Assembly (NCBI GenBank): GCA_963765765.1
Contig: CAVXYC010000020.1
Location: 32,001 to 96,000, forward strand
DNA length: 64,000 nt
DNA from: an uncultured Chloroflexia bacterium
Lineage (GTDB): Bacteria > Chloroflexota > UBA6077 > JACCZL01
Direction of reading: 5' to 3'
Part shown: positions 5,022-64,000 of the stretch, one piece after another
How the letters are laid out: every line of letters starts with the position of its first letter
How positions within the stretch are numbered: position 1 is the stretch's first letter
Made by a program: the position numbers and the translations under genes
Notes under the pieces: model-generated
Databases searched by the model: none
Told to the model about the DNA's origin: nothing
What the model saw: only the letters and a program-made list of their open reading frames with translations

Positions 5022-5135
5022 GGGCGAGCTTCTGCGCGCACTCCAAAGCCTTCGCCCGCGGCGTAGTGCAGATCGTCCCTTGACCACCATCCCTTCCGCA
5101 GCGCAAGGTTAGGTCGCCTTGCGGAGGGTTATCGA

Positions 5136-6127
5136 ATGCTTGTGTGTTTTCTGGACGCGCTCGAGGGGCGTATCAGTGAGTTTCCGAACGAGTATCTCGC
5201 CGCGCACGATGTGACGCTGGCTGGCGGTGATACAACGGCAGTACCGCGTGACACAGAGGCGCTCATCACCTGGGGCGATGCGTTGGACGACGCGCTCGTC
5301 GGTCGACTTCCGAATTTGAAGCTGGTGCAGCGAATCGGCTACTTCAATGGGGTAAGCCTGACGCCGGCGCAGGCCGCTGGCGCTCACGTGGCCGTATGGC
5401 CGAAGGGCGTGTCCAATCGGGTTGCCATGCATGCCACCACTTTTCTCCTGGCACTAAGCAGGCAGCTTCTGGCGAGCCATCGAGCAACGATTGCAGCGGA
5501 GAACGAGGCGGGTTTCGAGCCGGCGATCACCGATAACCGCGCCGCGGCAATGAACTGGCCGCTCATTCGAGATGTGGATCACACCATCCAACAAGACACT
5601 TGGGATCATCGGGTTCGGTGAGATCGGTGCGTGCTTCTCGCGACAGGCACACGCCTTTGACATGGATATCCTGTACTTCAAACGCACGCGGATGTCCCCC
5701 GAGCGGGAGGAGTTCTTCGGCGTGACGTATACGCCGCTTGATGAGCTATTGAGCATCTCGGACTACGTCGCGTCCTTTGTCCCTTTCTCGGCTGAGAGCG
5801 AAAAAATGCTCGGCGCGCGTGAAATCGGACTCCTGAAACCGTCCGCGTACTTCATCAACTGCGGGCGTGGGAAACACTGTCGACGAGCCGGCGCTGATAG
5901 ACGCACTCGGGAACCACGCCTTCCGTGGAGCGGCTCTGGACGTTTACTCCATTGAGCCCGTTCCAGCCGGGCATCCAGTTCTGAGTCTGGACAACGTCAT
6001 CTACACGCCACACAACGCTGGCGGAATCGGCGGATGGCACGACGTGTTTGCTCGAATCTCGCGTAACCTGGACCTTGTGACTGAGGGCCGATCTCCTGTG
6101 TCCTGGGAGGTTCCACCGACGGAATAG
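5136..6127 (+). CDS. D-2-hydroxyacid dehydrogenase family protein (indels at ~5580 and ~5870)
   Basis: GIIGFGEIG, INCGRG, AALDVYSIEP and TPHNAG spread over three consecutive ORFs. Confidence 0.85.
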
Positions 6128-12420: not shown

Positions 12421-13155
12421 ATGCTCGAAATATCATCGCGCCGGCCCCGTCAGTTCCTTTTCGCATTCAATACAGCGCTCGCAAGCGCGGCGCTTTTTGT
12501 CGCAACGATCGCTCATGCTCAGCCAACAGTCCCAGTCGCTGAGGACGAAGTCAGCGAGGGGGACACATCAAAGCCAAACGTCGCGCTTGTGCTCAATGTA
12601 GGAGCCGGATTTGAGCCTGGCCTCTCTATGCTCCAGGCGCTGTCCGATCGCAACCAGAAGCTCACATTCTTTGTGATGGGCTGGTGGGCCGAGCGACATC
12701 AGGACCAGCTTCAGCTCATCGCAGACGGCGGTCACGAAATAGCGAGCCACGGCCACTCCGTGTTTGAATTGACGAAAGTCTCCGACGCCGCGATACGAAA
12801 CGATCTGCAGGCCGCGGACGCCGCCATCAGCGCCGTGACTGGCAAGTCGACAAAGCCGCTCTGGTCACCATCTGCCGGCGACCGAAATGCGCGCGTGCGA
12901 GCCGTCGCCGCCTCCGAGGGCTATCGGCCGATCCTCTGGACGCTGGACAGCCTGGATTGGACATCCGATGCAACAGAGCAGAGTGTGTACACGCGGGTCA
13001 TGGAGCGCACCGGTAACGGCAGCATCGTGGTGATGCACTTCGATAGCCCCACCACCGTCCGTTCAACCGCGCTGGCTCTCCCAAGGATCATCGACGACCT
13101 GCGCGCGGGCGGGTACAAGATCATGACAGTGACGGAGCTGATGACTCAGCCTTGA
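12421..13155 (+). CDS. Secreted polysaccharide deacetylase (NodB/CE4) family protein with degenerate motifs
   Basis: TFFVMGWW, GHEIASHG, WTLDSLDW, GSIVVMH; signal peptide. Confidence 0.8.
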   Translation: MLEISSRRPRQFLFAFNTALASAALFVATIAHAQPTVPVAEDEVSEGDTSKPNVALVLNVGAGFEPGLSMLQALSDRNQKLTFFVMGWWAERHQDQLQLIADGGHEIASHGHSVFELTKVSDAAIRNDLQAADAAISAVTGKSTKPLWSPSAGDRNARVRAVAASEGYRPILWTLDSLDWTSDATEQSVYTRVMERTGNGSIVVMHFDSPTTVRSTALALPRIIDDLRAGGYKIMTVTELMTQP

Positions 13156-14367: not shown

Positions 14368-15261
14368 ATGAAAGTTCGCATTGGCATTGGACTGGGCACG
14401 CAGAGCTTTCCCGTCGGACGGCTCTTTCCTGGAGCTGTGTCAGGAGATGGAGCGCATCGGCATCGATTCCATCTGGCTTTCGGAGCGCCTCACCGGACCG
14501 GCGTACGATCCGATCGTCAGCCTTTCATTTGTAGCGGGCGGGACGAAGAAGCTGAAGCTCGGCACCAGCGTGCTCGTTCTGCCGGGTCGGAACCCCGCGA
14601 TTCTCGCCAAAGAGCTCGCAACGCTCGATCGTCTCTCGAATGGTCGCATCATCCCAGCCATGGGTCTGGGCGTGGTGGATCCGATTGAGCACCAGGCCTT
14701 CCGTGTACAGCGAACCGAGAGATCTTCGATCTTCGACGAATCGCTACCGCTCCTACGTCGATTCTGGTCCGAAGATCACGTTACGCACCACGGGCAACAT
14801 TTCGACTTTGAGGACGTACCATCCAGCCGAAGCCGATTCAGCAGCTTCCAGACGTCTGGCTGGGCGGCATGGCTCCGAGCGAGCTACGCCGAACGGGCCG
14901 ATTGGGTGACGGCTGGCTGCCCAGCACGTGCACGCCCGCTGAAGCAGCCGCCGGTCGCGCGGCGATCGAGGAAGCCGCTGCCAACGCAGGCAGATCAATC
15001 GAACCGGAGCATTACGGCGCGAGCATCACTTATGTCGAAGATGAGATTCCAGACTACCTGGCCAAGCGCATCACCCGTCGACGCCCCGGAATCGATCCTC
15101 GGGAGCTCGTACCGATCGGGCTCAAGGAAACTCATGCGCTGATGGAGCGCTTCATCGACGTGGGCTTCACCAAGTTCGTGGTGCGACCTGCGAAGGAGCC
15201 GGAAAGCTGGACGCCTGAGCTCGAGCGCATCGCCGACCACCTCCTTACGCTGGAGAACTGA
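14368..15261 (+). CDS. LLM-class (possibly F420-dependent) oxidoreductase, split by two indels
   Basis: MKVRIG, DSIWLSER, LATLDRLSNGR, RRTGRLGDGWLP. Confidence 0.8.
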
Positions 15262-16842: not shown

Positions 16843-16966
16843 CGACTGGGACCGCCGACATCCTGTCGGCTCGGGCCGGCCGGTGGACGGCACTGCCCGC
16901 TTAAATGTGAAGTTCTGAGGCGGCCCATTAGGGCCCGAGCCGACAGGATGTCGGCGGTCCCAGTCG
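16843..16966. repeat. REP-like doublet, perfect 35-bp inverted repeat
   Basis: CGACTGGGACCGCCGACATCCTGTCGGCTCGGGCC (16843-16877) and its reverse complement (16932-16966). Confidence 0.9.
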
Positions 16967-17194
16967 AACGGAGCCGTCAAGATCGGTCCATGCCACGATC
17001 CTCAACCGCATGTTCGTGCAGGCTTCGCCGTCCGATGTCCGTTGACGCTGAGTTGTCAGGGTGCTACTGTGCCGCCTGTCTGGCCACACGCGGTCGTCAT
17101 GTCACTCTCGTTTGACGCACCTATGTCCCTTGCAGTGAAAGTCTGGGTGATCGTCCAAGTGCTGGCGGAGCTATCCGTCGAGATTTGAGCTCCA

Positions 17195-18621
17195 ATGATC
17201 ACGAACACAAGCAAACAACGGCTCGAGCGGGCCATGCTCGATGGCTTGACGGGCACATCCCGAAAGTCCGAGCCGGCTCGGGGAAAGTCCGCGGCCGGAG
17301 GATGGATTTGGGGGGAGCCTGAGCATTACGACAGAGCTCTCGCGATGGACCCCATGCAGCTCACGGCGTTTCTGCAAAAGACGCAGCCGGAGATCCCTGA
17401 CCTTGAGATCGGAAGTCCATCGCTGCAATCGTTTCTCACGCTCCTCCAGGATGAGATCATCCGGCGCGGCGTGGTGGATGTCCTTCGACGCGGAGTGAAG
17501 GATGGCGCCCATCATCGGGACTTGTTCTTCGGCGTGCGCACATCCGCGGATCCACCATCGCCCCGACGCTTTACACAGAATCGGTTCAGCGTCATACCTG
17601 GGCTTCGCTACAGTGAGGACGAGTCCCGGCCCACCGTGGATGTCTGCCTTTTTGTGAATGGCCTGCCCATCGCCACGATCGAGCTCTCAGAACGATCCGC
17701 AGACGATGCGATTGAGCGATACAAGAACATTCCCGCAGCTCAGGAGCCGCTCTTCCAGCCCGGTCGTTGCATGGCTCATTTCGCCGTGGACGAGAAGCAG
17801 GCATACGTTTGCTCCGAGCTTCGCGGGGCCGATTCGAGATTCCAGACATTTAATCAGGGTTCAAGTGAAGGAGCTGGAAATTCTCCCAATCTCTTTGGGA
17901 TCGCCACAGAGTATCTCTGGCGAGACATCCTCACGCGACCGAGCATGGTTGACATGATCGAGAACTACGCGCAGATGTTCGAACCAGATGACGGGCTCAC
18001 TGTTGACTCGCGTGCGGCACCGATCTTCCCGCGATATCACCAGCTCGATGTCCTTCGCCGACTTCTCGCGGATGTAGAGAATCGCAACGTCGGTCAACGC
18101 TACCTGTTAGAACACTCGGACACCAATGGCACGTCGCATTCCATAGCCTGGCTCACCGGTCAGCTTATTGACGCACAGCAAGATAGCGTTCGCATCTTCG
18201 ACACTGTCTTCGTGCTGACGGATCGACCGTCCCTCGTCCGTCACGTCGGGGAATCGGTCCGTGGATTCTCTAGAGTCGGTGCTCAGGTACGGCCCGAGAT
18301 AGACGCATCGACGCAGATCCAGGCAGCCATCGAGAGCGGCGCGAGAATCATCATCGCCAACGTCGACCAGCTCCCAGCGATTCTGGATGAGATCGAGGCA
18401 CACCAGCGCGGTCGCAGATTCGCATTTGTCTTTGATGAGGCCTCACAGATGGGACTGAGGAGCAGATTAACGGGGCGTTAAGCGGACGTACGCCCCTACC
18501 GAATACGAGCACCTTTGTTTTCGCTCCGACCGCCAACGCCACTACGCTGGAGCTCTTTGGCCGGCCGTTCAACGATCGCGGCACCACAAAGTATTCCCCC
18601 TTCCACTCGTACATCGGATAG
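17195..18621 (+). CDS. Truncated, catalytically degenerate type I restriction HsdR-like protein, copy 1 (indel at ~18455)
   Basis: NRFSV, VNGLPIATIEL, AHFAVD, FPRYHQLDV; after the indel it reads EQINGALSGRTPLPNTSTFVFAPT...LELFG...PFHSYIG*. Confidence 0.8.
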
Positions 18622-18657
18622 TGTCGGCTAGCGAGTTGCGGATGTCGCCGGCAGCCA

Positions 18658-18786
18658 GGGCGGCCGATCATCTTGTCGGCCGGGCCCCTGAGGGCCGCCA
18701 TCGGGCACCACAGCTACGGTACGTTAATGGTACTTAGCCGGCGGCCCTTCGGAAGGGCCGGGCCGACAAGATATCGGCGGTCGCAG
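18658..18786. repeat. Degenerate second copy of the 16843-16966 doublet
   Basis: GGCCGATCATCTTGTCGGCCGGGCCC ... GGGCCGGGCCGACAAGATATCGGCGGTCGCAG. Confidence 0.7.
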
Positions 18787-18834
18787 TTCAGTCGGGTCGA
18801 CAGCACGTCGGCGGTCCAGCGCTATGATCTCCGA

Positions 18835-20371
18835 ATGACTACGTACGCCGGCGGGCCTCGATTAGAGCGCACCATCCTGCAAGCACTTACGGGCAAGCGG
18901 GTCGACGTGACGCGCGCCTCGCGCGACCGCATGGAGACATCGGGCGGATGGCGCTGGGGGCAACCCGAGGACTACGACCCGGAATTCGTACTGGATCCGA
19001 TCCAATTATGGGAGTTCCTGTCCACCACCCAGGTCACAAGCGAGCAGGAGCGACAGATCGTGGACCTCAGTCCAGGTAGCCCAACTCGTCAGGCGTTTCT
19101 CTCAGCGCTTCGCTGGGAGGTCTCCTACCGGGGCATTGCGGACGTGATGCGGCGCGGTATGTCCTACGGCCCGCTCAGCCTGACGTTGTTCTACGGTCTC
19201 TCCGGACCACCACCTCATGGATCGATGCGGCTGTTCCGCATGAACCGATTCAGCGTGACGCCGCGGCTCCCATATGGCCGGAGATGAGACTGGCGACCGC
19301 GTGGACCTTTGCTTCTTCCTCAACGGGCTGCCCCTCTTCACTGTCAAACTGGCGGACGGCTTAGAGATTGCAAATGAAGAGGCGGCGATCGACTGGTACA
19401 GAGAGATATCGCCAGGCTCGGCGAAACTCTTCGAGACAGGCCGTTGCCTGGCTCATTTCGCGGTTGATGATCAGCGAGTCTCCTACTGTGCCAATCTCGA
19501 TGAATCGGACTCGGTGTTTCATCCGTTCAACCAGGGGCTGAGTCAGCGCGCGGCCAACCGTCGGAAGCTCTTCGGTGTCCCAACAGAGTATCTCTGGCGG
19601 ACCATTCTTACTCGCCGAAGCGTGGTGGATCTCATTGAGAACTACGCTCTGATCGTGGCAACGGAGGATGCAACGACCGGCGCCGCGGGTCGAGCCGCGA
19701 TCTTCCCACGCTACCATCAGTTAGATGTTGTGCGTCGCCTTCTAGCGGACATCGACTACTACGGGGTTGGCCGCCGCTACCTGATTCAGCACTCGCAAGG
19801 AAGCGGGAAATCTCAGTCGATGATCTGGCTCATCAGTCAGATAATCGCGCTCGAGCTAGTTGATATGGCGATGTTCGGTACAGTCGTCATCGTGACAGAT
19901 CGGCCCTCATCAGATCATTGGCTTCTGGACTCGGTTCGACAATTCTCGCGAGTGAGCGCGATTGTCGACGCCAGAGAAATGAACACCGCGCACATTGAGG
20001 AGAATCTGGAAAGTCCCAACCGGATCATTCTCGTGAACGTGAAGGACTTCGCGTTTGTCCTGGACGAAATCAAGGTGCACTTTCACGGCTACGGCTACGC
20101 CATCGTCATTGATGAGACACAATCATCGACGCCCGAGAGCTCAACCTCTGATTCTGCTCACAATGATTCATCAATGGTCGCTCAGGGTCCCGACACCCTC
20201 GAAGACCAGGTCAACCGTGCCATGGCCGACCGCGACTATCTCCCGAACGCGAGCTACTTCGTCTTCAGCTCCACGCCAAACGGAAAAACGCTTGAGCTGT
20301 TCGGCAAGTCCTACAACGATCGCGGAACGATTAAATACCGGCCCTTCCACCAGTTCGGCCTCTCCGAGTAG
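18835..20371 (+). CDS. Truncated, catalytically degenerate HsdR-like protein, copy 2 (indel at ~19280)
   Basis: NRFSV, LNGLPLFTVKL, FPRYHQLDVV, HSQGSGKS, IDETQ, KTLELFG, PFHQFGLSE*. Confidence 0.8.
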
Positions 20372-20460
20372 CGGAACCGAGCCTTGAAGCTCCGAATTGA
20401 TTCCGCCTAGCCACCCGATGGCTAACAGCCCCGGAATGCGTTCGTGCTTCAACCCCCTCG

Positions 20461-20547
20461 TTGTCATCCTGAAGCGCAACGAGGATCACCCCCGCCGGAT
20501 TCCAGGACCCCGCGGAATAGATCCTTCGCTGCGCTTCAGGATGACAA
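20461..20547. repeat. GTCATCCTGA-family REP-like doublet
   Basis: TTGTCATCCTGAAGCGCAACGAGGATC ... GATCCTTCGCTGCGCTTCAGGATGACAA. Confidence 0.85.
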
Positions 20548-36173: not shown

Positions 36174-39100
36174 CTAGCGCGGGTCCACGGTGATCTTGGC
36201 AACCTCGAAGAAGTTCTCGCCGTTTGGCTGCGTAAGGCGCTGGCTGGTAACGGGATCGTACATGCCAGTGATGAGCCGGTATTCGCCCGCGGGGAGGTTG
36301 CGATCGATCGAGATCGCATGCTCGTCCACCACGTGATCGCCCGCCACCCATCCGGATGTCGGTTGGGCGCCGCCATCCGGCTGACCATCGTGCTGGGCAG
36401 CCACTCGTCCATCCGGTCCAAGAAGTTGAGTAAATACGGTGAGCGCCTGTCCGGGCGGCGCATTCGCCTTCCAGAAGAGCGTAAGCAGAAGCTGCTGATC
36501 CCGGCCCGGGCGTACGGTCTGACCGGGATCGAGGGTGTAACCGATCAAAGCAATGGCTGAGCCGAGCTGCGTGTCCAGCTCCACGGTGGGCTTCTGATTG
36601 GAAGACGACTGTCCCTCGCGTCCGCGAATAGTGACACGCTGCACCTCGCGCTTCACCTCTGTGCGGCCGGTCGCGGCGTCGCGCAATTCCAGGACAAGCT
36701 GCGCCTCGCCCGCGGCGGTGCCAGGTCTTGGGATGAGTCGGTACTGGCCTCGGAAGATCTCCCGCTCCTCCCAGCGATTGGTGGGATTCGCATCACCGGT
36801 AGGTCGAGTGATCTGCTCAGCCAGCGTTCGGCCTCCGTCTCGGCTCTCGAGCGCTACGCGTACCTGGTAGTCACGCTTCACATCACGCAGCGCGCGCCAG
36901 ATGAATTGCAGATCCAGCGACTCGCCCGGCGCCAGCTCATTCCGACCGTACTCACCGCCCATGATGTCAACGTCATCATTCAGCCGAACTCGCTCGCGAT
37001 TGGTGACCTGCACCTCACGTTCGCGCGGCGGCGACGGTGCCTTATTGATCAGTACCTCGCCCAGCATTGCCTGCACACCCGAAGGGTTCCCGTTCTGATC
37101 GAGGACGTTCAGCGCTCGCTCGCCGTCCAGTACACGCATGGCCAGTCGGTACCTGCCCGGCGGCGTTTCGGGAGGAACGGCCATGCGGAGCTGATCGCGG
37201 ATGAGCTGCCCGTCCACCCAGGTCCAGGTCGGCGCCATTCGATCCACCGGCTCAGACTCGCGCACGGCCCAGGTGAATCCTTGCTCGTCCACCAGACTGG
37301 CGCTCATGTGATAGATGCCGGGTGACGTGGCAAGTGCTCTCCAGGCAATGTCAACCTGGAGAGTCTCCCCCGCCGCCACGTTTGCTGTTTCCGATTCGCT
37401 CGCCAGCGACACTGGCTCCGGTACCGGTTGTCGATCAGAAAGACCGCGGGTAAGCTGGAAACCCTCAATACCGACTTTGTCCGCGAACAACGCCTTTGCC
37501 GGGTAGCGCAATCCGGCGGATGCCGTGCCACCCTCGGTAACGTGCAGAGGACCGAGTCGGATGGAGCCCTGGGTGGGGAGCAGCTCAACCAGCTCCATGT
37601 TCCGAACCCCAATATTTCGTCCCTGGGAGAGCGCGCCTACGTCAAGCTGATAGACGCCAGGAGCCAGTCCCGCAGGAACCTCCAGTGGAACGGAGGTACG
37701 GTAAGATCCGTCTGTTCCAATGGACTCCCGAGCGGTCTCGGTGGCAAACGACCAGTTCTGCTCGTCGATGTTCGTCAGTCGAACAAAGGCTTCGGATCGT
37801 GCCGCGCGGTCGGCCTGCCCCGGCTCCGGTTTCCAATACAGGTTGACCATCAGACTCGTACCCGGCTCAACCAGCTCACCGCGCTTGAGCTGAGTACCAG
37901 ACCGCAGAAGGTCGTACCCTGTGAGCGTTGCCACATCACCGAGTGTGATCTTGACTGGCACCTGCGCAGGCGACACAGCGTAATATGACTGGAAGAAGCG
38001 CATAGAACCCAACGGCACAAGCATGACAGCAGCGGCGATCAAGCCGCCTCGAATGGCGAGCTCTCGGCCGGTGGGGCGCTCGAGCACAAGCTTGCCACGT
38101 GGGCGAAATGCCCAGATCGCAGTGGCCAGAGCGAACACGACCGCGACGACGGTAATCGCATCGGACATACTGCGGAGTGGCGTGTTTTCAAACGAAACGC
38201 GCAGACTGTGCTCTCCGGCAGGCACTTGTATGGCAAGCATGCCCTCGGGCTCTGACGGGGTCACGTCTACGGGTTGATCGTCGAGCCAGCCCTTCCAACC
38301 GGGGAAATACGCCAGGTTCAGCACAACGCGGGACGGTCTATCCGTACTCACGTGATAGCTTGCCCGCCCCGCTTTCGAGTCAAGCAAGATCACTCGGGCC
38401 CAAGGGTCAGATGCCATCGGGTGCACTGCCTCGTCGTAACGTGCGCCGACCACCCGGCCCAGCGCCTCTGGCGAAACCCAGGGATAGTCGGTGACCCATC
38501 GCGGCACGTACTCGCCTGCCACGGTAGTACCGACGAGGTGGTAGAGCAGCTCAAACTCGATCGTCTCGCGCACGCCAACTTCTGGGTCTTTCTGGTTGGC
38601 CATGATCGGCTTGAGATTCCAGAGGTTTGTAGCCAGGCAGAACACCACCAGCGCTGCAGCCGCGGCAGTTCGCCAGCGCGGGGCCAGGATGTCCACCAGG
38701 TAGCCGGTGGCAATGCTGGTAGGCAGCGCCATGAGAAGCAAGAATCGCCAGGGGAACTGCGTCAGCGGCAGCAACGGGATCGTTTCCCACAGCGGCAACG
38801 AGGGCGGCTGAGAGAAGAAGAATGCAATGCCGAAGATCAGTACGGACATGATCAGCTCGGTACGCGCCCGTGGCAGGAAGCGCTTGAACACGATCAGGCC
38901 AGCGATTGCGCCGATTCCGCCCAGGACCACCTGAACCAGGCCCATCTTGTACGCGTACACCGGCGAGTCGGGAAAGATGATCCCGTAGGTGTGGAATACC
39001 GTGTTCGGCAGAATGTCCTTGAGCGCAGGGAAGTGGTCATTATGCGAGACATAGAGAAGTCCCTTTAGCTGGACGAGCTCCTTCTCCACCAGCGCCGGAA

Positions 39101-39831
39101 ATGCAAGGTAAGCGCACAGGCCACCTGCGAGCAGCGGCCGCGGCGACCAACCGGGCGCCCACAAACGAGAAGGTCTTCACTCCACCGCCGTTCTCCAGAA
39201 CGGCGCGAATCATGAGCCACAGGCAGTAAATCACCAGAATGGGCGTAAAGATGAAGGCGGAGAGGTTGTGCGTCAGCACGATCAGCGCATAGAAGCCCGC
39301 CGCGGCAATGAAGTACCGCCCGAGTTTCCAACGACTGTGCGGCTCGGAGAGTCGGCTGAACGCCCAGAGAATCGTTGGGAAAAGCGCCATCGCCGCGAAT
39401 TCCGGAATGTCGCCGCGGTAATAGGCGTTGACCAGGTGGTACGGAACGTAGACGAACACCACCGACGCCACGGTGGCGGCGTTGAGCGACAGAAACGTGG
39501 AGCTATAGAGGAACGCTCCCACCGCTGAGAGGACCATGAAAACCGCGATGACAGCCTTCGTGGCAGCAAGCCAACCGAGGCCAACCGCGTGGAATGCCGC
39601 CGCCAGGTAGTAGGTGAACGGCGAATAGAAATTAAAGAGCGGTGTGCCGTAACCCAGGAACTGATCCGGCGCCCAGCGACACACGAGACTTCCGTCACGC
39701 AAGCACTGATCGATCTCGATGGCTCGATGAACGTGGTACAGCCCATCACTCGAGGCAAAGAAATGCTCGGTAGTAAGGGGGATGAGCGCCGGAAGCGAGA
39801 GGGCGCTAACGAGGAGCAGGCGAAAGAGCAA
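36174..39831 (-). CDS. Large GT-C-like membrane protein (6-pyruvoyl-tetrahydropterin-synthase-related/YfhO-like) with repeated C-terminal Ig-like domains; indel at ~39130
   Basis: DGLYH, GYGTPLFNFYSP, YYRGDIPE, QFPWRF, YFPGW, and repeated 'L.L.W.A...P...W..G' domains. Confidence 0.8.
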
Positions 39832-40126
39832 GTCGTCTGTCTTAGGAGAGAGATATCGCCGAGCGCAGCCCGGCCGATGTCACGCTACCTTATAGCCGTC
39901 TAGGCCAGGTGCGATCAACCGCGAGCAAGCTATTACTACGGTGGTGCGGGTCTCTGTACCCGCCAGTTGGCTCAGATGCCCCAGTGATGGAAGAAGAGAC
40001 CCATACTCCAGGGGCAAACAAGTCCACGCACCTAACAACGGTCAGGCCAGTGCTCGGGCTCGCAAGTCCGAATCGCTTCAGGCCATCCAGTAGAATCCAA
40101 ACGGTGACGCGCCAGGCGCGTCTCCA

Positions 40127-40226: not shown

Positions 40227-41436
40227 TTATGACGAGTGCGCGATTTTCACGGCGCCCACAACGGTTACTTGACGACCAAACTGAGGACCAAGGCGTTCAG
40301 GAGATTGCGCTAGGACTTGATCCATCCGAGCTGCGGCCTGTTCCTGCATCGTCGGCAGAACGTGACTGTAGACATCCAGCTTAAGGCTGATAGTGCTGTG
40401 TCCGAGCGTCTCCTGGACAACCTTCGGATGTTCACCCATTGCCAGCAGCAAGGTCGCGGCGGTATGGCGCAGGTCATGGAATCGGATTGCAGGTAGCTCC
40501 GCACGCTGAAGAAGTGGTTTGAATTCGCGGCTAGAAATGTTCCGTCCGTCGAAATCCTCACCGATTTCGTTACAGATGACGAGGTCGTGAGCGGCCCAAT
40601 GCGGGCCTGCGCTTAGTCGCGTCTCAAGCTGTCGAGTTCAATGGGCGGAGTGCATTTACTGCCGTACTCGAGAGGCGTATCTGACGACGACGGTGCCCGG
40701 TCTTCGGCTCTTCGAAACTCCACTCGCCTGGGAGACGTTGCAGCGTGTGGCGCACCTCTAGCCGTGCGGCGTCGAGATCAAGGTTCGGCCAGCGAAGCGC
40801 GAGCAACTCGCCTTGCCGCATCCCGGTGGTGACCGCCAAGACATACAGCGCTTCCAGATGATCGCCTGATGATGTCTGCAAGAGCTTTCTTGCCTGCTCA
40901 AGGGTTAGGGGGCGAATCTCTTGATGTTTCGGTGTTGGCACATCAACGGCGTCCGAGGGATTCCGTCCAATCAATTTCCACTTCACCGCCTGACGCAGGG
41001 CTCGATGCAGCACGGAGTGAAGGAATTGGACAGTCCGTGCCAGAAGTCCCTCCGAGAGCTTCTTGCTGTAGAGCCGACTCAAATGCTGTGGGGTAAGCTT
41101 CGAAAGAGTCACCCGCCCGAGCGTCGGGAGTGCATGCAGTTCCACGAGCTGCTGGTAGCGTACGTACCTTCGAGGCCGTAGTGTGGGCCGAGCGGTATCT
41201 TCAAGCCATCGGCGTAGGTAATGCTTTAGTAACTGCTCGGGCGCGGTAACCAGCGTTCCATCGCGCAGTTGCTGCCGCGCTCCGGCAAGCATGTTTTGAA
41301 CTTCTCGCTGCGTTCTGCCGTAGAACGGCTTGCGCTTCCGCTTCCCATGCACCCAGCCTAGATCGACCTTCGCTTCCCAGCGACCGTCTTTGCGCTTCGT
41401 GATCGTGCCTTCACCGTGTCCGCGTCGTCAGGCCAT
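40227..41436 (-). pseudogene. Tyrosine recombinase/phage integrase pseudogene at tRNA-Leu
   Basis: RGHGEGTI, TTGMRQGELL, FHDLRH, LGHS, DVYSH; TGA at codon 3 and TGA plus indel at ~40640. Confidence 0.9.
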
Positions 41437-41624
41437 CAGTCCGACTCCTTCGCCCGCTGCTCGCGCTTCCGCTTCGTATAGGCAGCCACACGGCATCGGT
41501 TGGAGCATTACTGCCGCCTCACCGTGCCCGTCATGCTGGTCCCGCAGATCACACAGGGGCGCTCGACGATACGCGGGCGCGCCACCAACTCTCGCCCGAG
41601 GACCCTCCCACGTTCATCAGTCAT
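41436..41624 (-). pseudogene. Small zinc-finger gene (CGNR-like) coupled to the integrase, with an internal TAA
   Basis: Manual translation MTDE...CVICG...RRQ*CSNRCRVAAYTKRKR...D*; TGATG overlap with the integrase start. Confidence 0.65.
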
Positions 41625-41971
41625 GGGTTCATCCCATCACATTTAAACGTTTCCGTGTGACTTGAAAACGCGACAACAGATTTCGTTGACTCGCTGGGGA
41701 AAAGCGACATATGCGACATATCTCGCTGACTGGCGGCCTGCGGTCACGATCAAAAGGTAATGCGTCGGCTGGCGTCCCTGCCCTTCATTGATGTTGCTAA
41801 GAGGCGATGCTACCGATCAGTGACCTCGCCAGGACGCTGGCGTAATGAACTGAATAGTCCACTCGAACTACATCCATGACCGAAGGTCCCGCGTTAATGT
41901 GTCTGTCAGCAAGTTAACTGGGCGGGTTCGCCCACTCGCATGCAATCGCGCCGATGATGAACCACTAACTA

Positions 41972-42001
41972 TTTGTGTAGCGCTCGTTTGTGTAGCGCTC
42001 G
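41972..42001 (+). repeat. 15-bp tandem duplication
   Basis: (TTTGTGTAGCGCTCG)x2. Confidence 0.9.
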
Positions 42002-42051
42002 GTCTCCGATGGGGCGGCAGGGAGCACAGCAGGGGAGAAAGAGGCCAGTCC

Positions 42052-42488
42052 ATGCTCGTTCATGAAGCGCGCCTGCTCAGATCGATCGCCCGCGCCACCC
42101 ACGGCCGGTTCCCGCCGACCGCGTTCCCCCGGCTGGTGGAGCTCCTCCAGCGCCGCGCGGCGCGCGACGGGGCCGCGGCCGGGTACGAGTCCATGTATGA
42201 CGACCTCGGAGCTGCGGGGAGCATCCGGGGGACTCCGTGGGCGGCGTCCGGGTGGACGCCGTCACCATCGCACCCGACGTGCAGGCGCGGGTGCTCGGGT
42301 ATCTGCACGCGCACCGCGCCGACTGGATCGAGGCCTTGCGCCGGGATGGCAAGCGGCTGGGCGACGTGCGGGTGGTCCGCGACAGCATCGAGGTGGTGGT
42401 CGAGCGGGATCCAGATACGGCCCCCGGAGTGCCCGAGCATCGACGAGCTCCGCGCCACGGCGCACGCGAGCATCGCGACCGCGTCTAG
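42052..42488 (+). CDS. Hypothetical protein (frameshifted, very GC-rich)
   Basis: GAGG before ATG; continues into ORF 42237-42488. Confidence 0.35.
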
Positions 42489-42553
42489 CCGCGCCCCCTC
42501 ACCGGGCGGCACCGCGCCCGATGGCCTCCCTGGTGGACGACACTAGGAGCGTC

Positions 42554-43095
42554 ATGCCCGACCCGTCGCACCCTCCTGGGCCGCCGCCGCTGGACGGTCG
42601 GATCGCGGCAAACCCGGAGGGCGTACTCGTTGACCCGAACGATGCCTGCACCGTCTATGAAATCAACTACCTGTCGAACATCGCTCCCCAATACGATGAT
42701 CGATTCAACGGCGGGCGTGGACTCTGGTATCAGCTTGAGACTCGAATCCGTCAGGATATTGTCGGAACGGGGACGCCGATCCACGTTATCAGTGGCACCG
42801 TGTTCGGGAATGCTCCGATCCAGACAGTGGGCGCGCGTCTCATCCCCATCCCGCACATGGACTTTCAGATCCTCATCACTCCGTATGGAGTCGTGCGCTT
42901 GCTATTTGTCCACTCGCCCCAGATCGGTGCCCATGGCTGCGCCCTCCGTGCGACTCTGGAAGACTGGATCGTCGCCATGGCGGATATCGGAGCCGTCTCT
43001 GGGCTCGGCTTCTTTGCAGGCGCCAGCGATGAATTGGAGGCGAGCCTCCAACACCGGACGGTCGCGCGGTGTGGAAGGTACTCACGGGGAAGTAG
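42554..43095 (+). pseudogene. DNA/RNA non-specific endonuclease (NucA/EndoG) C-terminal remnant
   Basis: YLSNIAPQ...FNGG.GLWYQLE..IR, VISGTVF, IPIP; the DRGH motif is replaced by DGRI. Confidence 0.65.
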
Positions 43096-43731
43096 GGTGA
43101 ACGTTCGCCCCCGCAACAAGGCTGAGCTCCAGCTTAATCGTGAGAGACTCGGAAGCTCTCGGCGCCGTGATCGAGCAATGGGTCGAATACGAGGCCGAAG
43201 GGCTGTTACCAGCCGAAACTTAGCAACGACGGGTCAATCGACCCGAGACGTCGCGGGAAGCCACGTCGCCGGCACTCGTGCTGCTCGACCTCCGTACGCG
43301 CGTGCCCTGTCAACCAATTTAATCGACATTTGGGGCCAGACTGGTTGGGCTCTCGGTACGGCGGCCGCACTGTGCTGAGCCGATTCGGACGATCACCTAC
43401 GGTTAGACGCTCGGTGCGTGCGGCACAGCCAGTGCCGCCCCAACTTGCCGGCGACAGCGGCTCGGGATCGACGCGTAACTATCGTTCCGATTACTGACCT
43501 TTACTAGACGTAAGACCGGGCTACCGGGGTCCTCATTGGCCATCGGTCTTTCGCGGACCTGACGCAAGAAGGAGAACTGCTAGGGCGAGGCCGGGCGGGC
43601 CAGGAGCATCGCGGATGCGCCGCGCGTCGCGATGGATCCTGCGACCAGGCGCGGCCGAACGGGTATCGACCCATCACCGGCGCGTTTACCGAAGAATGCC
43701 CCCTGGTGGTTGCAAGAGAAGGGGTTCGCAC

Positions 43732-54030: not shown

Positions 54031-54039
54031 CTGGGAGCA

Positions 54040-55172
54040 ATGATGTTCTATCGATGCGAGAGCTGCGGAGCGGAGTATCCGCGTAACACTGATCGATGGC
54101 GCTGTTCGTGCGGCGCCCCCTTTGAGCTGGCGGCGCAACCATCCTTTCAGCGCGCATCCATCGACTCGCGCGAACACTCGCTGTGGCGCTACGCTGCGGT
54201 GCTGCCCGCCGGCCTGGCCGACCACCGCGTCAGTTATCGCGAGGGGTGGACACCCCTTCTACCTGCACCCGCGCTCGGGGACGGCGTGCATCTCAAGCTA
54301 GAGTTCATGTTTCCCAGTGGGTCGTTCAAGGATCGTGGCACCACGGTGCTGGTCAGCGAGATGCGCCGCCTCGGACGGTCGTCGCTGATGGAGGATTCGT
54401 CGGGTAACGCGGGCGCATCGCTGGCGATGTACGCCGCCCGAGCCGGGAATGTCCTGCCAGATCTTCGCGCCATCCGGCACGTCGGCGGGCAAGCTGGTTC
54501 AAATCGAGATTGCGGGATCGCGGCTTAGGAGTATCCCGGGCACGCGAGAAGACACTGCCGCGGCGGCTCTCGCAGCCGCGGATGACCCCAGTCAGCCGTT
54601 TTACGCCAGTCACAACTGGCATCCCCTGTTCGTGGAAGGCGTGAAAACAGTCGGGTTTGAGATCTGGGAGCAGCTCGGTTTCATTGCTCCTGACGTTGTG
54701 GTAGCACCGGCCGGGAATGGCAGCATGATTCTGGGGCTCTTCGAGGCATTCCGTCGCGCTGCAACGGGCTGGGGAGATCAGACCGCATCCCGAAAATCAT
54801 CGCAGTCCAGGCAGAGGCGTGCGCGCCGCTCGTGCACGCCTTCGAGAACGGCATGGACGATGTCGCAGCCGTTCGCAGAAGCTCCCGACGCTGGCTGAAG
54901 GTATCGCATCGGCTCGCCCTATCCGTGCTCGCCAGGTGCTTGCTGCCATTCATGCCTCTGGCGGCGCAGCGGTCTCCGTCCCAGAAGACCGGCTACTTCC
55001 TAGTGTTCGACGATTGGCAACTCTTGGCTTCTTCGTGGAGCCAACATCCGCCGTGGTGGCTGCCGCGGCTCCAATACTTGTCGATCGAGGTATCCTGAGT
55101 GTAGGCGATTGCTGCGTGCTTCTCCTGAGCGGCAGCGGACTCAAGGCAACTGAGAAGCTCGTTAGTGTGTAA
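54040..55172 (+). CDS. Threonine synthase-like PLP enzyme (several indels)
   Basis: EGWTPL, PSGSFKDRG, SSGNAG, PAGNGS, VEPTSA, SGSGLK. Confidence 0.85.
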
Positions 55173-61792: not shown

Positions 61793-61889
61793 GCTCCCTC
61801 GCCCTCTGGGAGAGGGTTGGGGCGAGGGGCCCGCGAGAGGGGATTTCGAACGCCACTCACGCCAACCCTCTCCCAGAGGGCGAGGGAGC
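61793..61889. repeat. REP-like doublet (CCCTCTCCC family)
   Basis: 28-bp perfect inverted repeat, 61793-61820 and 61862-61889. Confidence 0.88.
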
Positions 61890-63957
61890 CCCCAACGCCC
61901 GCGATGCCGCGGCCAGCGCGGATAGTGTGCGCACGCCCCGCTCTGCCGTGGGAAAGAGCGGGATGCCCGCCTCTCGATACACAGCCAGGCCCTGCGGAGC
62001 AAGTGCTTCGGCACCCATGCGTGACACGATGACCGGCTTCTCAGTGTTCATCAAAGAGACAACCGACTCGGCAACTTTGATGGCCGGCGGGTCCGCATTG
62101 GTCGTCAGTGCCAGCAGCAGCATGTCGATATTGGGCGAATCCATCACAAGTTGCAGGACTTGAGTGAACATTTCTGGCTGGGCGGTGTACTGCATGGTGA
62201 CGTCGACCGGGTTCTCCGGGGCGCCAAACGGCGGTACGACAGCCGAGATTGCTTGAAGCACGTCGCTGGGTAACGGGGGAATCTCGAGCCCATGACTGGC
62301 ACACTCATCGGCAACCATGCTGCAGGCGCCGCCCGATGCCGAAATCACTCCAACGCGAGGGCCGCGCGGGAGCGGCTGCGTCTTGAGAGCCGTGGCAATG
62401 TCCAGAAGATCGAATAGCTCTGACACGCGGATTACACCGGCCTGTCGCAGGGCGACATCGGCGAGCTGCTCGTCACCGAGCATTGCGCCCGTGTGCGACT
62501 CCACGGCTCGCCGTCCGAGCGCCGTGCGCCCCGTCTTGTAGGCGAACACAGGCTTCCCGTTCTCGAGCGCGCGTCTGGCGGCACGTTGAAATCGATCCCA
62601 ATCTCTGATCGTCTCCAGGAATAGCAAGAAATGGCCGGTCTCCGGATCATCGGCCATTGCTTCGAGAACGTCGGAGACAGTCAGGTCTGCCTCATTGCCA
62701 GTGGCGGCCCAGAAACTGAATCCTAGCCCTTGCTCCCACCCGCGACTGATGAGCGATCCACCGAGCGCACCACTCTGAGTGATAAGACCCGAGGGCCCAG
62801 CGGGCGTTCGCTCCAGCTCCAGCGCCATGCCGAACGCGGTAAACGTGCGCGACGGCGGCCGAACGACGCCAGACGTGTTTGGGCCGATCAGACGAATGCC
62901 ACTGTCACGGGCCGTCCGAACCATCTCGTCCTGGAGCCGGCGGCCCTCGGTCACCAACCTCGGCAAATCCAGATGCATGGATGACCGCGGCGGGAACGCC
63001 TCGCGAGCCGGCGTCTGCGACCGCAGCCGCGACAGCCGTGGCGGGCGTCAGTATGTGCACCACATCCACAGTCTCGGGAAGCGAGGCAACGTCGGGATAA
63101 CACGGCAGACCATCGATCTCCGATTCACGCGGATTGACGAGATACACGCGTCCCGAGTACTCGTGCCGCTGGAGATATCGACGAAGTCGAGTAGACATGG
63201 CGGTTGGGGATCGCGACGCGCCGACCACGGCAAGCGACGCCGGATTCAGCATGCGTCGAACTGCCTCGCCAGCATCGCCAGAATCTTCCTTGACCTGCGC
63301 TTCCTCGGCTCGAACAATGAGCGCGTCGAGTACAACGGCGCCTTGCTCTCGAAGTCCCAGAGGATTCACTTCTACTTCGATAAACCGCTTGTCACGCTCA
63401 ACAAGCTCGGCAATCGACATCATGGCGCCGGTGATTGCGTCAACATCGACCGGCCTTCGACCGCGCGCTCCGCTAAGCAGTGGCCACGCCTTCAGCTCTT
63501 CTAGCATCGAGCGAGCACTGGCTTCGGTGAGTGGAAGAAGTCGAATGGCCCGATCGTCCAAAGCCTCTACCCATATCCCGCCGAGCCCAACCGAAATGGC
63601 AGGACCGTAGGTGGCATCTCGAAGCACACCGATGATCAGCTCGAGATCGTGCTCGACATGCTCCTCGATAAGCACACCGTCAGTGACAAGACCTCGTTGG
63701 GCGGCAAACTCCAGTAGCTCACCGACAGCGCTCCGAATCCGCTCCACGCTTGAGAGGTGCGTGTGAACAGCGCCGAGCTCGCTCTTGTGGCTGAGGCCGC
63801 GGGCGACGAGCTTGGCTACGGCGGGTAGCGACACACCGGACGGGACGTCGGCCACGCTCGACACAACGATGCTCGGCGGAATTGTCAGACCCAGCTCGGA
63901 CAATATCGCCTTGGATTCAGGCTCAGAAAGTGACACGGTAACGGGATCGCGAGACAC
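61857..63957 (-). CDS. ADP-forming acyl-CoA synthetase (ATP-grasp plus CoA-binding domains, beta-alpha order), indel at ~62970
   Basis: HKSELG, EVEVNPL, VVGAS, IGPNT, QSGALG, GNEAD, SHTGA, NPVD. Confidence 0.88.
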
Positions 63958-64000
63958 GGGCGTAGGCTAGCAGATTTTGACTGGAACGGTTCGACTCCAG

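Follow-up and report, generated by a model that had tools for sequence, protein, structure and literature searches.

Two adjacent genes that each resemble the first half of HsdR, the restriction subunit of type I restriction–modification (R-M) systems, raise the question of whether they are the remains of a decayed R-M locus or a gene family that has been kept for another job. The two genes, here called c1 and c2, lie in tandem in a 64,000-nucleotide (nt) stretch of DNA from an uncultured Chloroflexia bacterium (assembly GCA_963765765.1, contig CAVXYC010000020.1, positions 32,001–96,000). This whole stretch is referred to as the window, and positions are counted from its first letter unless another contig is named. 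Our analysis revealed that c1 and c2 are not pseudogenes but a selection-maintained gene family in soil Chloroflexota; what is new here is a real, selected pseudo-enzyme pair that is derived from HsdR and is narrow in distribution. With a probability of roughly 0.6, we read the pair as a small selected family that descended from HsdR by truncation and then duplication, and that likely forms a self-contained, non-translocating module.

Structure of the c1–c2 gene pair

The two genes were delimited by six-frame translation, Pfam searches and alignment:

17195..18621, + strand: c1, a half-length HsdR paralogue consisting of a nuclease fold and the first RecA (RecA1) lobe
18835..20371, + strand: c2, a half-length HsdR paralogue

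The reading of c1 runs from an ATG at 17195 to approximately 18448 and then in the −1 frame to a stop at 18619–18621 (C-terminus PFHSYIG), and that of c2 from an ATG at 18835 to approximately 19275 and then in the +1 frame to a stop at 20369–20371 (C-terminus PFHQFGLSE). There is one frame change per gene, at approximately 18445–18450 in c1 and 19276–19285 in c2, and no nonsense codon. Both stops lie 2–4 residues past the motif PFHxY/F, where full-length relatives enter the second RecA (RecA2) lobe. Pfam detected HSDR_N (1.8e-10) and SWI2_SNF2 in c1, and SWI2_SNF2 (1.1e-12) and ResIII in c2; PF22679, which is present in three full-length relatives, is absent from both. The scores against the TIGR00348 hsdR model were weak (40.7 bits for the c1 piece and 60.5 bits for the c2 piece) and fell under the cut-off of 284.55, as did those of the intact open reading frames (ORFs) from the second genome described below.

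The alignment with the three full-length relatives (994–1012 aa) located the changes in the catalytic motifs. In place of the nuclease motif E-x-K, c1 has ELS and c2 has KLA, with both catalytic residues lost in the latter; Walker A reads HSDTNGTS in c1 (lysine lost) and HSQGSGKS in c2 (kept); the DEAH box reads DEAS and DETQ, and the TAT motif APT and SST, respectively. The motifs NRFSV, NGLP, AHFAVD, FPRYHQLD and LELFG are still present in the pair. An earlier note, made from the letters of the window, had described two adjacent, diverged HsdR paralogues that stop at the same place of HsdR and carry one indel each without nonsense codons. This description was borne out by translation, Pfam and alignment for the paralogy, by the alignment with full-length relatives for the stop, and by six-frame translation for the indels, and every motif change and retained motif that it quoted was reproduced in the alignment and the motif table. 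Its outer bounds, 16843 and 20547, are the outer arms of flanking palindromes (see below), not gene ends.

Occurrence of the pair in a second species

The assembly that holds the window (G000) comprises 6.49 Mb in 33 contigs and is 92% complete; the contig of the window measures 893 kb. Only one other genome of the same genus (G001) was among those searched, and there a 14.9-kb contig has the two genes in the same tandem arrangement with both ORFs intact: c1 at L014:9550-11016 (488 aa, C-terminus PFHAYSTERRS) and c2 at L014:11138-12637 (499 aa, C-terminus PFHQYGKA). Between the window and G001, the identity is 58–72% for c1 with c1 and 63–68% for c2 with c2, against 43–46% in the cross comparisons. 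Therefore, the duplication predates the split of the two species. The protein collection that we searched includes the c1 protein of G001 but not its intact c2; NCBI annotation appears to have omitted the latter from the protein set while recording the former.

The orthologues in G001 are neither full-length nor randomly truncated, as would be expected of simple pseudogenes, but intact and of the same end. The same holds more widely. Homologues of approximately 470–510 aa ending at PFHxY, whose search the earlier note had proposed, were found: approximately 15 further half-length relatives from metagenomes share the end site. In all 15 half-length sequences examined, the frame is open and the stop falls 2–6 residues past PFHx[Y/H/F]. 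Clustering at 90% identity in the protein collection gave 6 c2-type and 11 c1-type clusters, both counts including the window's own pieces; the complete members measure 484–510 aa (c2-type) and 484–490 aa (c1-type, which also includes some pieces).

The family is thus real but small. A profile built from 13 members and compared with 1.84 billion representatives (50% identity) retrieved just two family clusters, with 854 and 796 bits, and the next match (584 bits) was a piece of a longer HsdR. The records of the relatives belong to Chloroflexota. Among the genomes of the same order (39), the same class (66) and a phylum sample (401), the half-length form was found in G000 and G001 only; the other strong matches in these genomes are open frames of approximately 900–1100 aa, except for one frame of 532 aa in the genome G066. 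A scan of a genome collection recovered the contig of G001 alone. A metagenome scan with the pattern FPRYHQL returned full-length HsdR only (37–45% identity) and no half-length locus among the 80 matches listed. Close relatives (≥60% identity) were absent from the 3 matching records of a phage collection and the 752 of a plasmid collection, all of which were ordinary HsdR. One plasmid match labelled 'type I restriction endonuclease' was rejected as a family member because it is a full-length gene in an M-S-R operon. PADLOC yielded no family match beyond weak matches to type I restriction endonuclease (REase); a PbeA match with an E value of 0.005 was regarded as noise.

Purifying selection on both genes

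The pairs of G000 and G001 were compared by the Nei–Gojobori method, using as controls three genes that flank the G001 pair and have orthologues elsewhere in G000. The c1 and c2 genes were analysed in two pieces each, with the following values of nonsynonymous (dN) and synonymous (dS) divergence:

c1, first piece: 413 codons, dN/dS 0.21, dN 0.28, dS 1.36
c1, second piece: 55 codons, dN/dS 0.07, dN 0.20, dS 2.71
c2, first piece: 145 codons, dN/dS 0.15, dN 0.23, dS 1.58
c2, second piece: 345 codons, dN/dS 0.12, dN 0.25, dS 2.02
three flanking controls: 130–358 codons, dN/dS 0.07, 0.07 and 0.12, dN 0.08–0.11, dS 0.9–1.5

In both genes, the third codon position differs approximately two to three times as often as the first and second positions. 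Together with the dN/dS values of 0.07–0.21, which are rough figures yet not near 1, this excess indicates that both genes are under purifying selection. The proposal that the locus is maintained rather than a decaying R-M locus therefore stands, given the intact orthologues in the congener, the common end site, the dN/dS values and the background of assembly errors described in the next section.

Origin of the frame changes

The frame changes in c1 and c2 of G000 have to be seen against the condition of the assembly, which carries a general indel problem. In rpoB (G000:C20:326017-329370), approximately 360 nt (model positions 599–724) lie in another frame of 155 aa, which amounts to two indels in an essential gene; rpoC beside it is intact. 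The canonical hsdR of G000 on contig C1 and an N6_Mtase gene on contig C14 are in three frame pieces each. In the window, at least six other genes are split across frames, as judged by Pfam coordinates that run on into the next ORF or by overlap of neighbouring ORFs:

5067–5952: probable 2-hydroxyacid dehydrogenase
14372–15258: luciferase-like oxidoreductase
36177–39879, − strand: PTPS-related membrane protein
40230–41427, − strand: phage-type integrase
54031–54895: PLP-dependent enzyme
61860–63966, − strand: ADP-forming acyl-CoA synthetase

A 1000-aa open frame at 36177–39176 (− strand) without a Pfam match at E ≤ 1e-5 is probably a continuation of the PTPS-related membrane protein, whose start is at 39879.

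Contigs from four soil metagenome runs, three of DNA and one of RNA, mostly 95–99% alike to the window, were aligned to it. At most 0.15 of the sampled words occurred in any one sequencing run, so that the habitat is given no more closely than by this match to soil metagenomes, and regions without cover were taken as no evidence. The site in c1 requires one additional base or the loss of two. A contig of run X20 has a T inserted behind 18445, one of X3 has the same as a loose end, and in one of X1 the bases at 18446 and 18448 are missing. The site in c2 requires the loss of one base, and X3 lacks one at 19282, while the crossing contigs of X1 and X2 are each one letter shorter. The frame is kept in every contig that crosses either site. 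Both frame changes are therefore probably assembly errors, and the claim that the indels match a window-wide background of errors agrees with the shifted frames in rpoB and at least six window genes and with the restoration of the frame at both sites by contigs of related strains.

Complementary degeneration of catalytic motifs

The catalytic motifs were scored in the 15 half-length proteins and in 12 full-length relatives of the same phylum:

full-length (12): nuclease D 12/12, ELK 12/12, GSGKS 12/12, DE 12/12, H of DEAH 12/12, TATP 12/12
c1 (8): nuclease D 8/8, E-x-K kept 3/8 (EMK, ELK, ELK), Walker A lysine lost 8/8 (T, S or A), Walker B DE 8/8, H of DEAH lost 8/8, motif III APT 7/8
c2 (7): nuclease D 5/7, E-x-K lysine lost 7/7 and glutamate lost 6/7, Walker A lysine kept 6/7 (R in one), Walker B DE 7/7, H of DEAH lost 7/7, motif III variable

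The lysine of E-x-K is lost in five of the eight c1-type proteins and all seven of the c2 type, but in none of the full-length proteins. FPRYHQL and the motif Ia TDR are present throughout c1 and c2. As far as the motifs can tell, the degeneration is complementary: c2 keeps the nucleotide pocket, and c1 keeps the nuclease pocket, which is intact in some lineages. The term 'catalytically dead', which had been applied to the pair from the window alone, is therefore only partly appropriate. The motif losses on which it was based were all confirmed; however, the Walker A lysine and the Walker B DE survive in c2, and three of the eight c1-type proteins keep E-x-K.

An AlphaFold2 model of c2 from G001, based on a 69-row alignment, reached a predicted local distance difference test (pLDDT) score of 85.8 and a predicted template modelling (pTM) score of 0.86. 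Its best fold matches were EcoR124I HsdR chains (E 6e-13 to 1e-10, template modelling (TM) score 0.52–0.55 by query), and an ESM Atlas model matched the N-terminal half of 1000-aa HsdR clusters with a TM score of 0.89. These matches indicate that the fold is intact and that the chain ends with the first RecA lobe.

Origin by truncation and duplication

A maximum-likelihood tree of 27 rows was constructed from the 15 half-length proteins and the N-terminal halves of the 12 full-length relatives, and was rooted on the two most distant sequences. The half-length proteins form one clade (support 100/99) on a long stem of 0.41, with all 12 full-length proteins outside. This clade splits into c1 (8 rows, 100/100) and c2 (7 rows, 100/100), and the c1 and c2 of the window fall within the respective clades. 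The simplest history is one truncation, then one duplication, and then a long persistence of both copies. The ancestral HsdR lost everything past the first RecA lobe, namely, RecA2 together with the C-terminal domains. The full-length relatives show 35–43% identity to the pair and are ordinary HsdR encoded in hsdM-hsdS-hsdR operons in the three genomes examined (G010, G007 and G009).

Genomic context

The earlier note's statement that the 64 kb holds no methyltransferase or specificity gene was confirmed. A Pfam scan of the window covered 88 of the 94 picked ORFs, those overlapping the pair being left out and two being exchanged, and neither N6_Mtase nor Methylase_S was found at E ≤ 1e-5 among these 88 ORFs or on the 893-kb contig. 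Methylase_S had no match anywhere in G000, and N6_Mtase matches occur on contigs C30, C14 and C9 only. The canonical hsdR of G000 lies at C1:45875-48058, on a contig without an N6_Mtase match, and N6_Mtase genes are found at C30:126090-129047 and C14:380205-381064; the type I complement of this genome looks incomplete or scattered. G001 carries a complete hsdM/S/R set of another HsdR clade on its contig C20, and the scanned ORFs of its 14.9-kb contig include neither N6_Mtase nor Methylase_S. A search of both genomes for a separate gene encoding the C-terminal half gave nothing but weak matches to the unrelated resident hsdR. Therefore, the pair is not a split HsdR.

The surroundings of the pair differ between the two genomes. 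In G000, an MFS transporter gene lies upstream on the opposite strand, and genes for a DUF4230 protein and a PhyH dioxygenase lie downstream. In G001, a gene for a Lon_C-domain protein lies upstream and one for a putative transposase, with helix-turn-helix matches only, lies downstream. The flanking genes of G001 have orthologues of 77–89% on contig C23 of G000, away from the pair, and those of G000 have no close orthologue in G001. All that the two loci have in common is the two genes and a 47-nt leader, beyond which the flanks of the pair fail to align. The pair thus has the character of a self-contained cassette within the flexible genome.

The elements around and between the genes are as follows:

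16843..16966, no strand: palindromic repeat I1, upstream of c1; 35-nt arms at 16843–16877 and 16932–16966, 100% complementary and 54 nt apart
17145..17191, + strand: conserved 47-nt leader directly 5' of the c1 start codon; 83% identity to L014 9495–9541 of G001
18670..18772, no strand: palindromic repeat I3 in the c1–c2 spacer, resembling repetitive extragenic palindromic (REP) elements, with 18-nt arms
20461..20547, no strand: palindromic repeat I2, downstream of c2; 22-nt arms, 95% complementary; dispersed

I1 is a dispersed REP-like element that is not specific to the pair, its arms matching approximately 43 places in the genome; the arms of I2 match approximately 23. The same repeat family as these REP-like palindromes was found downstream of the pair in G001. 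The leader may be a candidate promoter, operator or 5' untranslated region (UTR) that travels with the pair. A TTGACG hexamer occurs approximately 85–95 nt 5' of the c1 start codon in both genomes; a scan for promoter and terminator consensus sequences gave nothing exceeding the shuffled expectation.

Two further regions near the pairs were recorded. In G001, positions 12616–13516 of L014, which separate c2 from the putative transposase gene, are of low complexity and show tandem short peptide repeats in two overlapping minus-strand frames, with no Pfam match. In the window, at 40230–43375, approximately 20 kb downstream of the pair, the split phage-type integrase lies beside a gene whose 460-aa product contains a DNA/RNA non-specific endonuclease domain.

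The tandem order was observed in both genomes and also in two strains nearly identical to G000, whose contigs, from runs X1 and X2, span the spacer. The short-read contigs have loose ends at 18634–18786, around I3, and one contig of X2 skips 18702–18811. These loose ends show that breakage at the spacer does occur. In one NCBI accession series of a metagenome-assembled genome, one c1-type and one c2-type protein are encoded on contigs of 11.7 and 22.9 kb. Short-read assemblies may have broken at the spacer repeat, or the genes may also occur singly elsewhere.

Alternative explanations

That c1 and c2 are simple pseudogenes, the decayed remnants of a type I R-M system whose frames are open by chance, would account for the degenerate catalytic motifs, the missing half of the protein, the single frame change in each copy and the lack of hsdM and hsdS nearby. 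This reading is largely refuted, and we consider it very improbable, because G001 has intact orthologues, all 15 half-length sequences are open and share the end site despite identities down to 45% between the subfamilies, dN/dS is 0.07–0.21 with third positions differing two to three times as often as the others, and the sequence downstream shows no trace of the C-terminal half. A variant of this idea is that the family functions elsewhere and that both copies were recently inactivated by real frameshifts in the assembled strain. Two frame changes in 3.2 kb are indeed denser than the approximately one per 8 kb that Pfam detected elsewhere in the window, and the contigs that restore the frame come from related strains. 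However, the Pfam-based frequency is a lower bound, the essential rpoB is shifted too, as are the hsdR on C1 and the methylase gene on C14, and the frame is restored by every contig crossing the c1 site (X1, X20 and X3) or the c2 site (X3, X1 and X2), which makes recent inactivation rather unlikely.

Other explanations accept the genes as functional and differ in the role assigned to them. The pair might regulate a type I system encoded elsewhere, either by competing with or capping HsdR or the methylase, as a dominant-negative factor or in restriction alleviation, or by completing a split HsdR. Its descent from HsdR, the complete hsdM/S/R on C20 of G001, and the canonical hsdR on C1 and the N6_Mtase genes of G000 would fit such a role. 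The whole C-terminal half is missing, however. In the HsdR of EcoR124I, the C-terminal helical domain contacts the methylase, and the dominant-negative idea is weakened by the loss of this part. Moreover, the resident type I genes fall into a different HsdR clade, a search with c2 returns no other match from its own genome, Methylase_S was not found in G000, a separate gene for the C-terminal half exists in neither genome, and the pair is unlinked to the resident systems; a regulatory role of this kind appears distinctly improbable. Alternatively, the pair might be a defence sensor or decoy, in which dead HsdR bodies mimic a restriction subunit and so bind foreign DNA or the anti-restriction factors of phages or plasmids, either by themselves or together with an effector encoded elsewhere. 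Its place in the flexible genome of both species, beside a putative transposase in G001, would suit this role, as would an evolution faster than that of the neighbours (dN 0.20–0.28 versus 0.08–0.11) and the long stem branches in the tree. On the other hand, no conserved effector gene lies alongside, PADLOC gave weak type I REase matches only, and the phage and plasmid records contained no close relative (0 of 3 and 0 of 752). To our knowledge, the DNA-mimic anti-restriction proteins described so far act on the methylase core rather than on HsdR, and we regard the sensor or decoy as rather unlikely.

Several observations weigh against the reading that we prefer, a small selected family forming a self-contained module. 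The dS of the pair (1.4–2.7) is near saturation, and the dN/dS values are rough for this reason. The dN of the pair (0.20–0.28) is two to three times that of the controls (0.08–0.11), and the faster protein change could reflect relaxed constraint, fast evolution, or non-orthology by lineage exchange. The short-read contigs that restore the frames derive from related strains and not from the assembled strain. The sole hint of expression consists of contigs of one metatranscriptome run with 90–99% likeness, and this run may hold DNA. Finally, the tandem linkage is limited to G000, two very close strains and G001, and the c1-type and c2-type database entries, the window's own excepted, are never on equally sized contigs.

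Proposed function and significance

The module that we favour would consist of two proteins encoded with their own conserved leader in the flexible genome. A single RecA lobe cannot translocate in superfamily 2 (SF2) motors. With one RecA lobe each and no part for docking to the methylase, neither c1 nor c2 can translocate or serve as a type I restriction subunit. The complementary losses in c1 and c2 lead us to predict a heteromer, in which nucleotide binding would fall to c2 and DNA binding to the nuclease-fold/RecA1 bodies of both proteins, with no translocation and, in G000, no cleavage. Such a module may have a sensing or regulatory purpose connected with foreign DNA. Our best guess from the sequence is therefore a non-translocating, nucleotide-binding and DNA-binding heteromer. 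A more specific version, which we consider rather improbable, would be an obligate heteromeric pseudo-enzyme: with RecA2 gone, the second copy of the gene would contribute another RecA1-like lobe in trans, nucleotide binding would be retained by c2, and c1 would have kept the nuclease pocket along with, in some lineages, its catalytic residues, so that the two would form a new stand-alone ATP-gated module of the flexible genome for DNA sensing or DNA nicking. If this were true, it would be the first system derived from a restriction subunit that works without a methylase or specificity subunit.

Truncated hsdR genes are normally dismissed as pseudogenes. Here, a truncated HsdR with degenerate motifs has been retained and duplicated, and purifying selection acts on it across species, which suggests that half of a restriction motor has been given another job. 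The pair therefore provides a concrete example of how a bacterial conflict protein can evolve into a pseudo-enzyme, with a reach limited, as far as seen, to two clusters at 50% identity and a narrow group of soil Chloroflexota. A full-text literature search, whose coverage excluded most subscription journals, found no paper on a conserved truncated HsdR family.

Comparison with known systems

The closest known relatives are the full-length HsdR proteins of the same clade, such as that of G010 (994 aa, L015:516-3500). The pair is 43–46% identical to them along the entire half-length protein and shares with them the N-terminal region, the nuclease fold, RecA1, FPRYHQL and TDR. Unlike the pair, they run approximately 490 residues further, through RecA2, a T1R_D3-like domain and C-terminal domains; they also keep D/ELK, GSGKS, DEAH and TATP (12/12) and are encoded next to hsdM and hsdS. 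Among solved structures, EcoR124I HsdR (PDB 2W00, 4BEB, 6H2J and 7BST) is the best match of the c2 model, with approximately 500 aligned columns, and the ELK of the full-length relative aligns by sequence to IELKK of EcoR124I. This protein is, in contrast to the pair, a complete motor-nuclease, and the identity is only 12–14%; a search of PDB sequences with the c2 subfamily profile gave no match at E ≤ 0.001.

The Vibrio vulnificus structure PDB 3H1T is described as an N-terminal fragment of a putative HsdR subunit (PMC2777439). It resembles c1 and c2 in being a piece of HsdR without the C-terminal part, and it ranked 27th among the fold matches of c2. The fragment is reportedly a laboratory construct of a longer protein and not a naturally truncated gene.

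A broader parallel is offered by RecC of RecBCD, AddB of AddAB and XPF-ERCC1, in which helicase or nuclease folds without catalysis are kept for binding DNA or a partner. Such scaffolds are often paired with a partly competent relative and work inside known repair machines. By analogy only, the c1–c2 pair may be likened to them, as two degenerate bodies of one fold, one with its nucleotide pocket and the other with its nuclease pocket retained.

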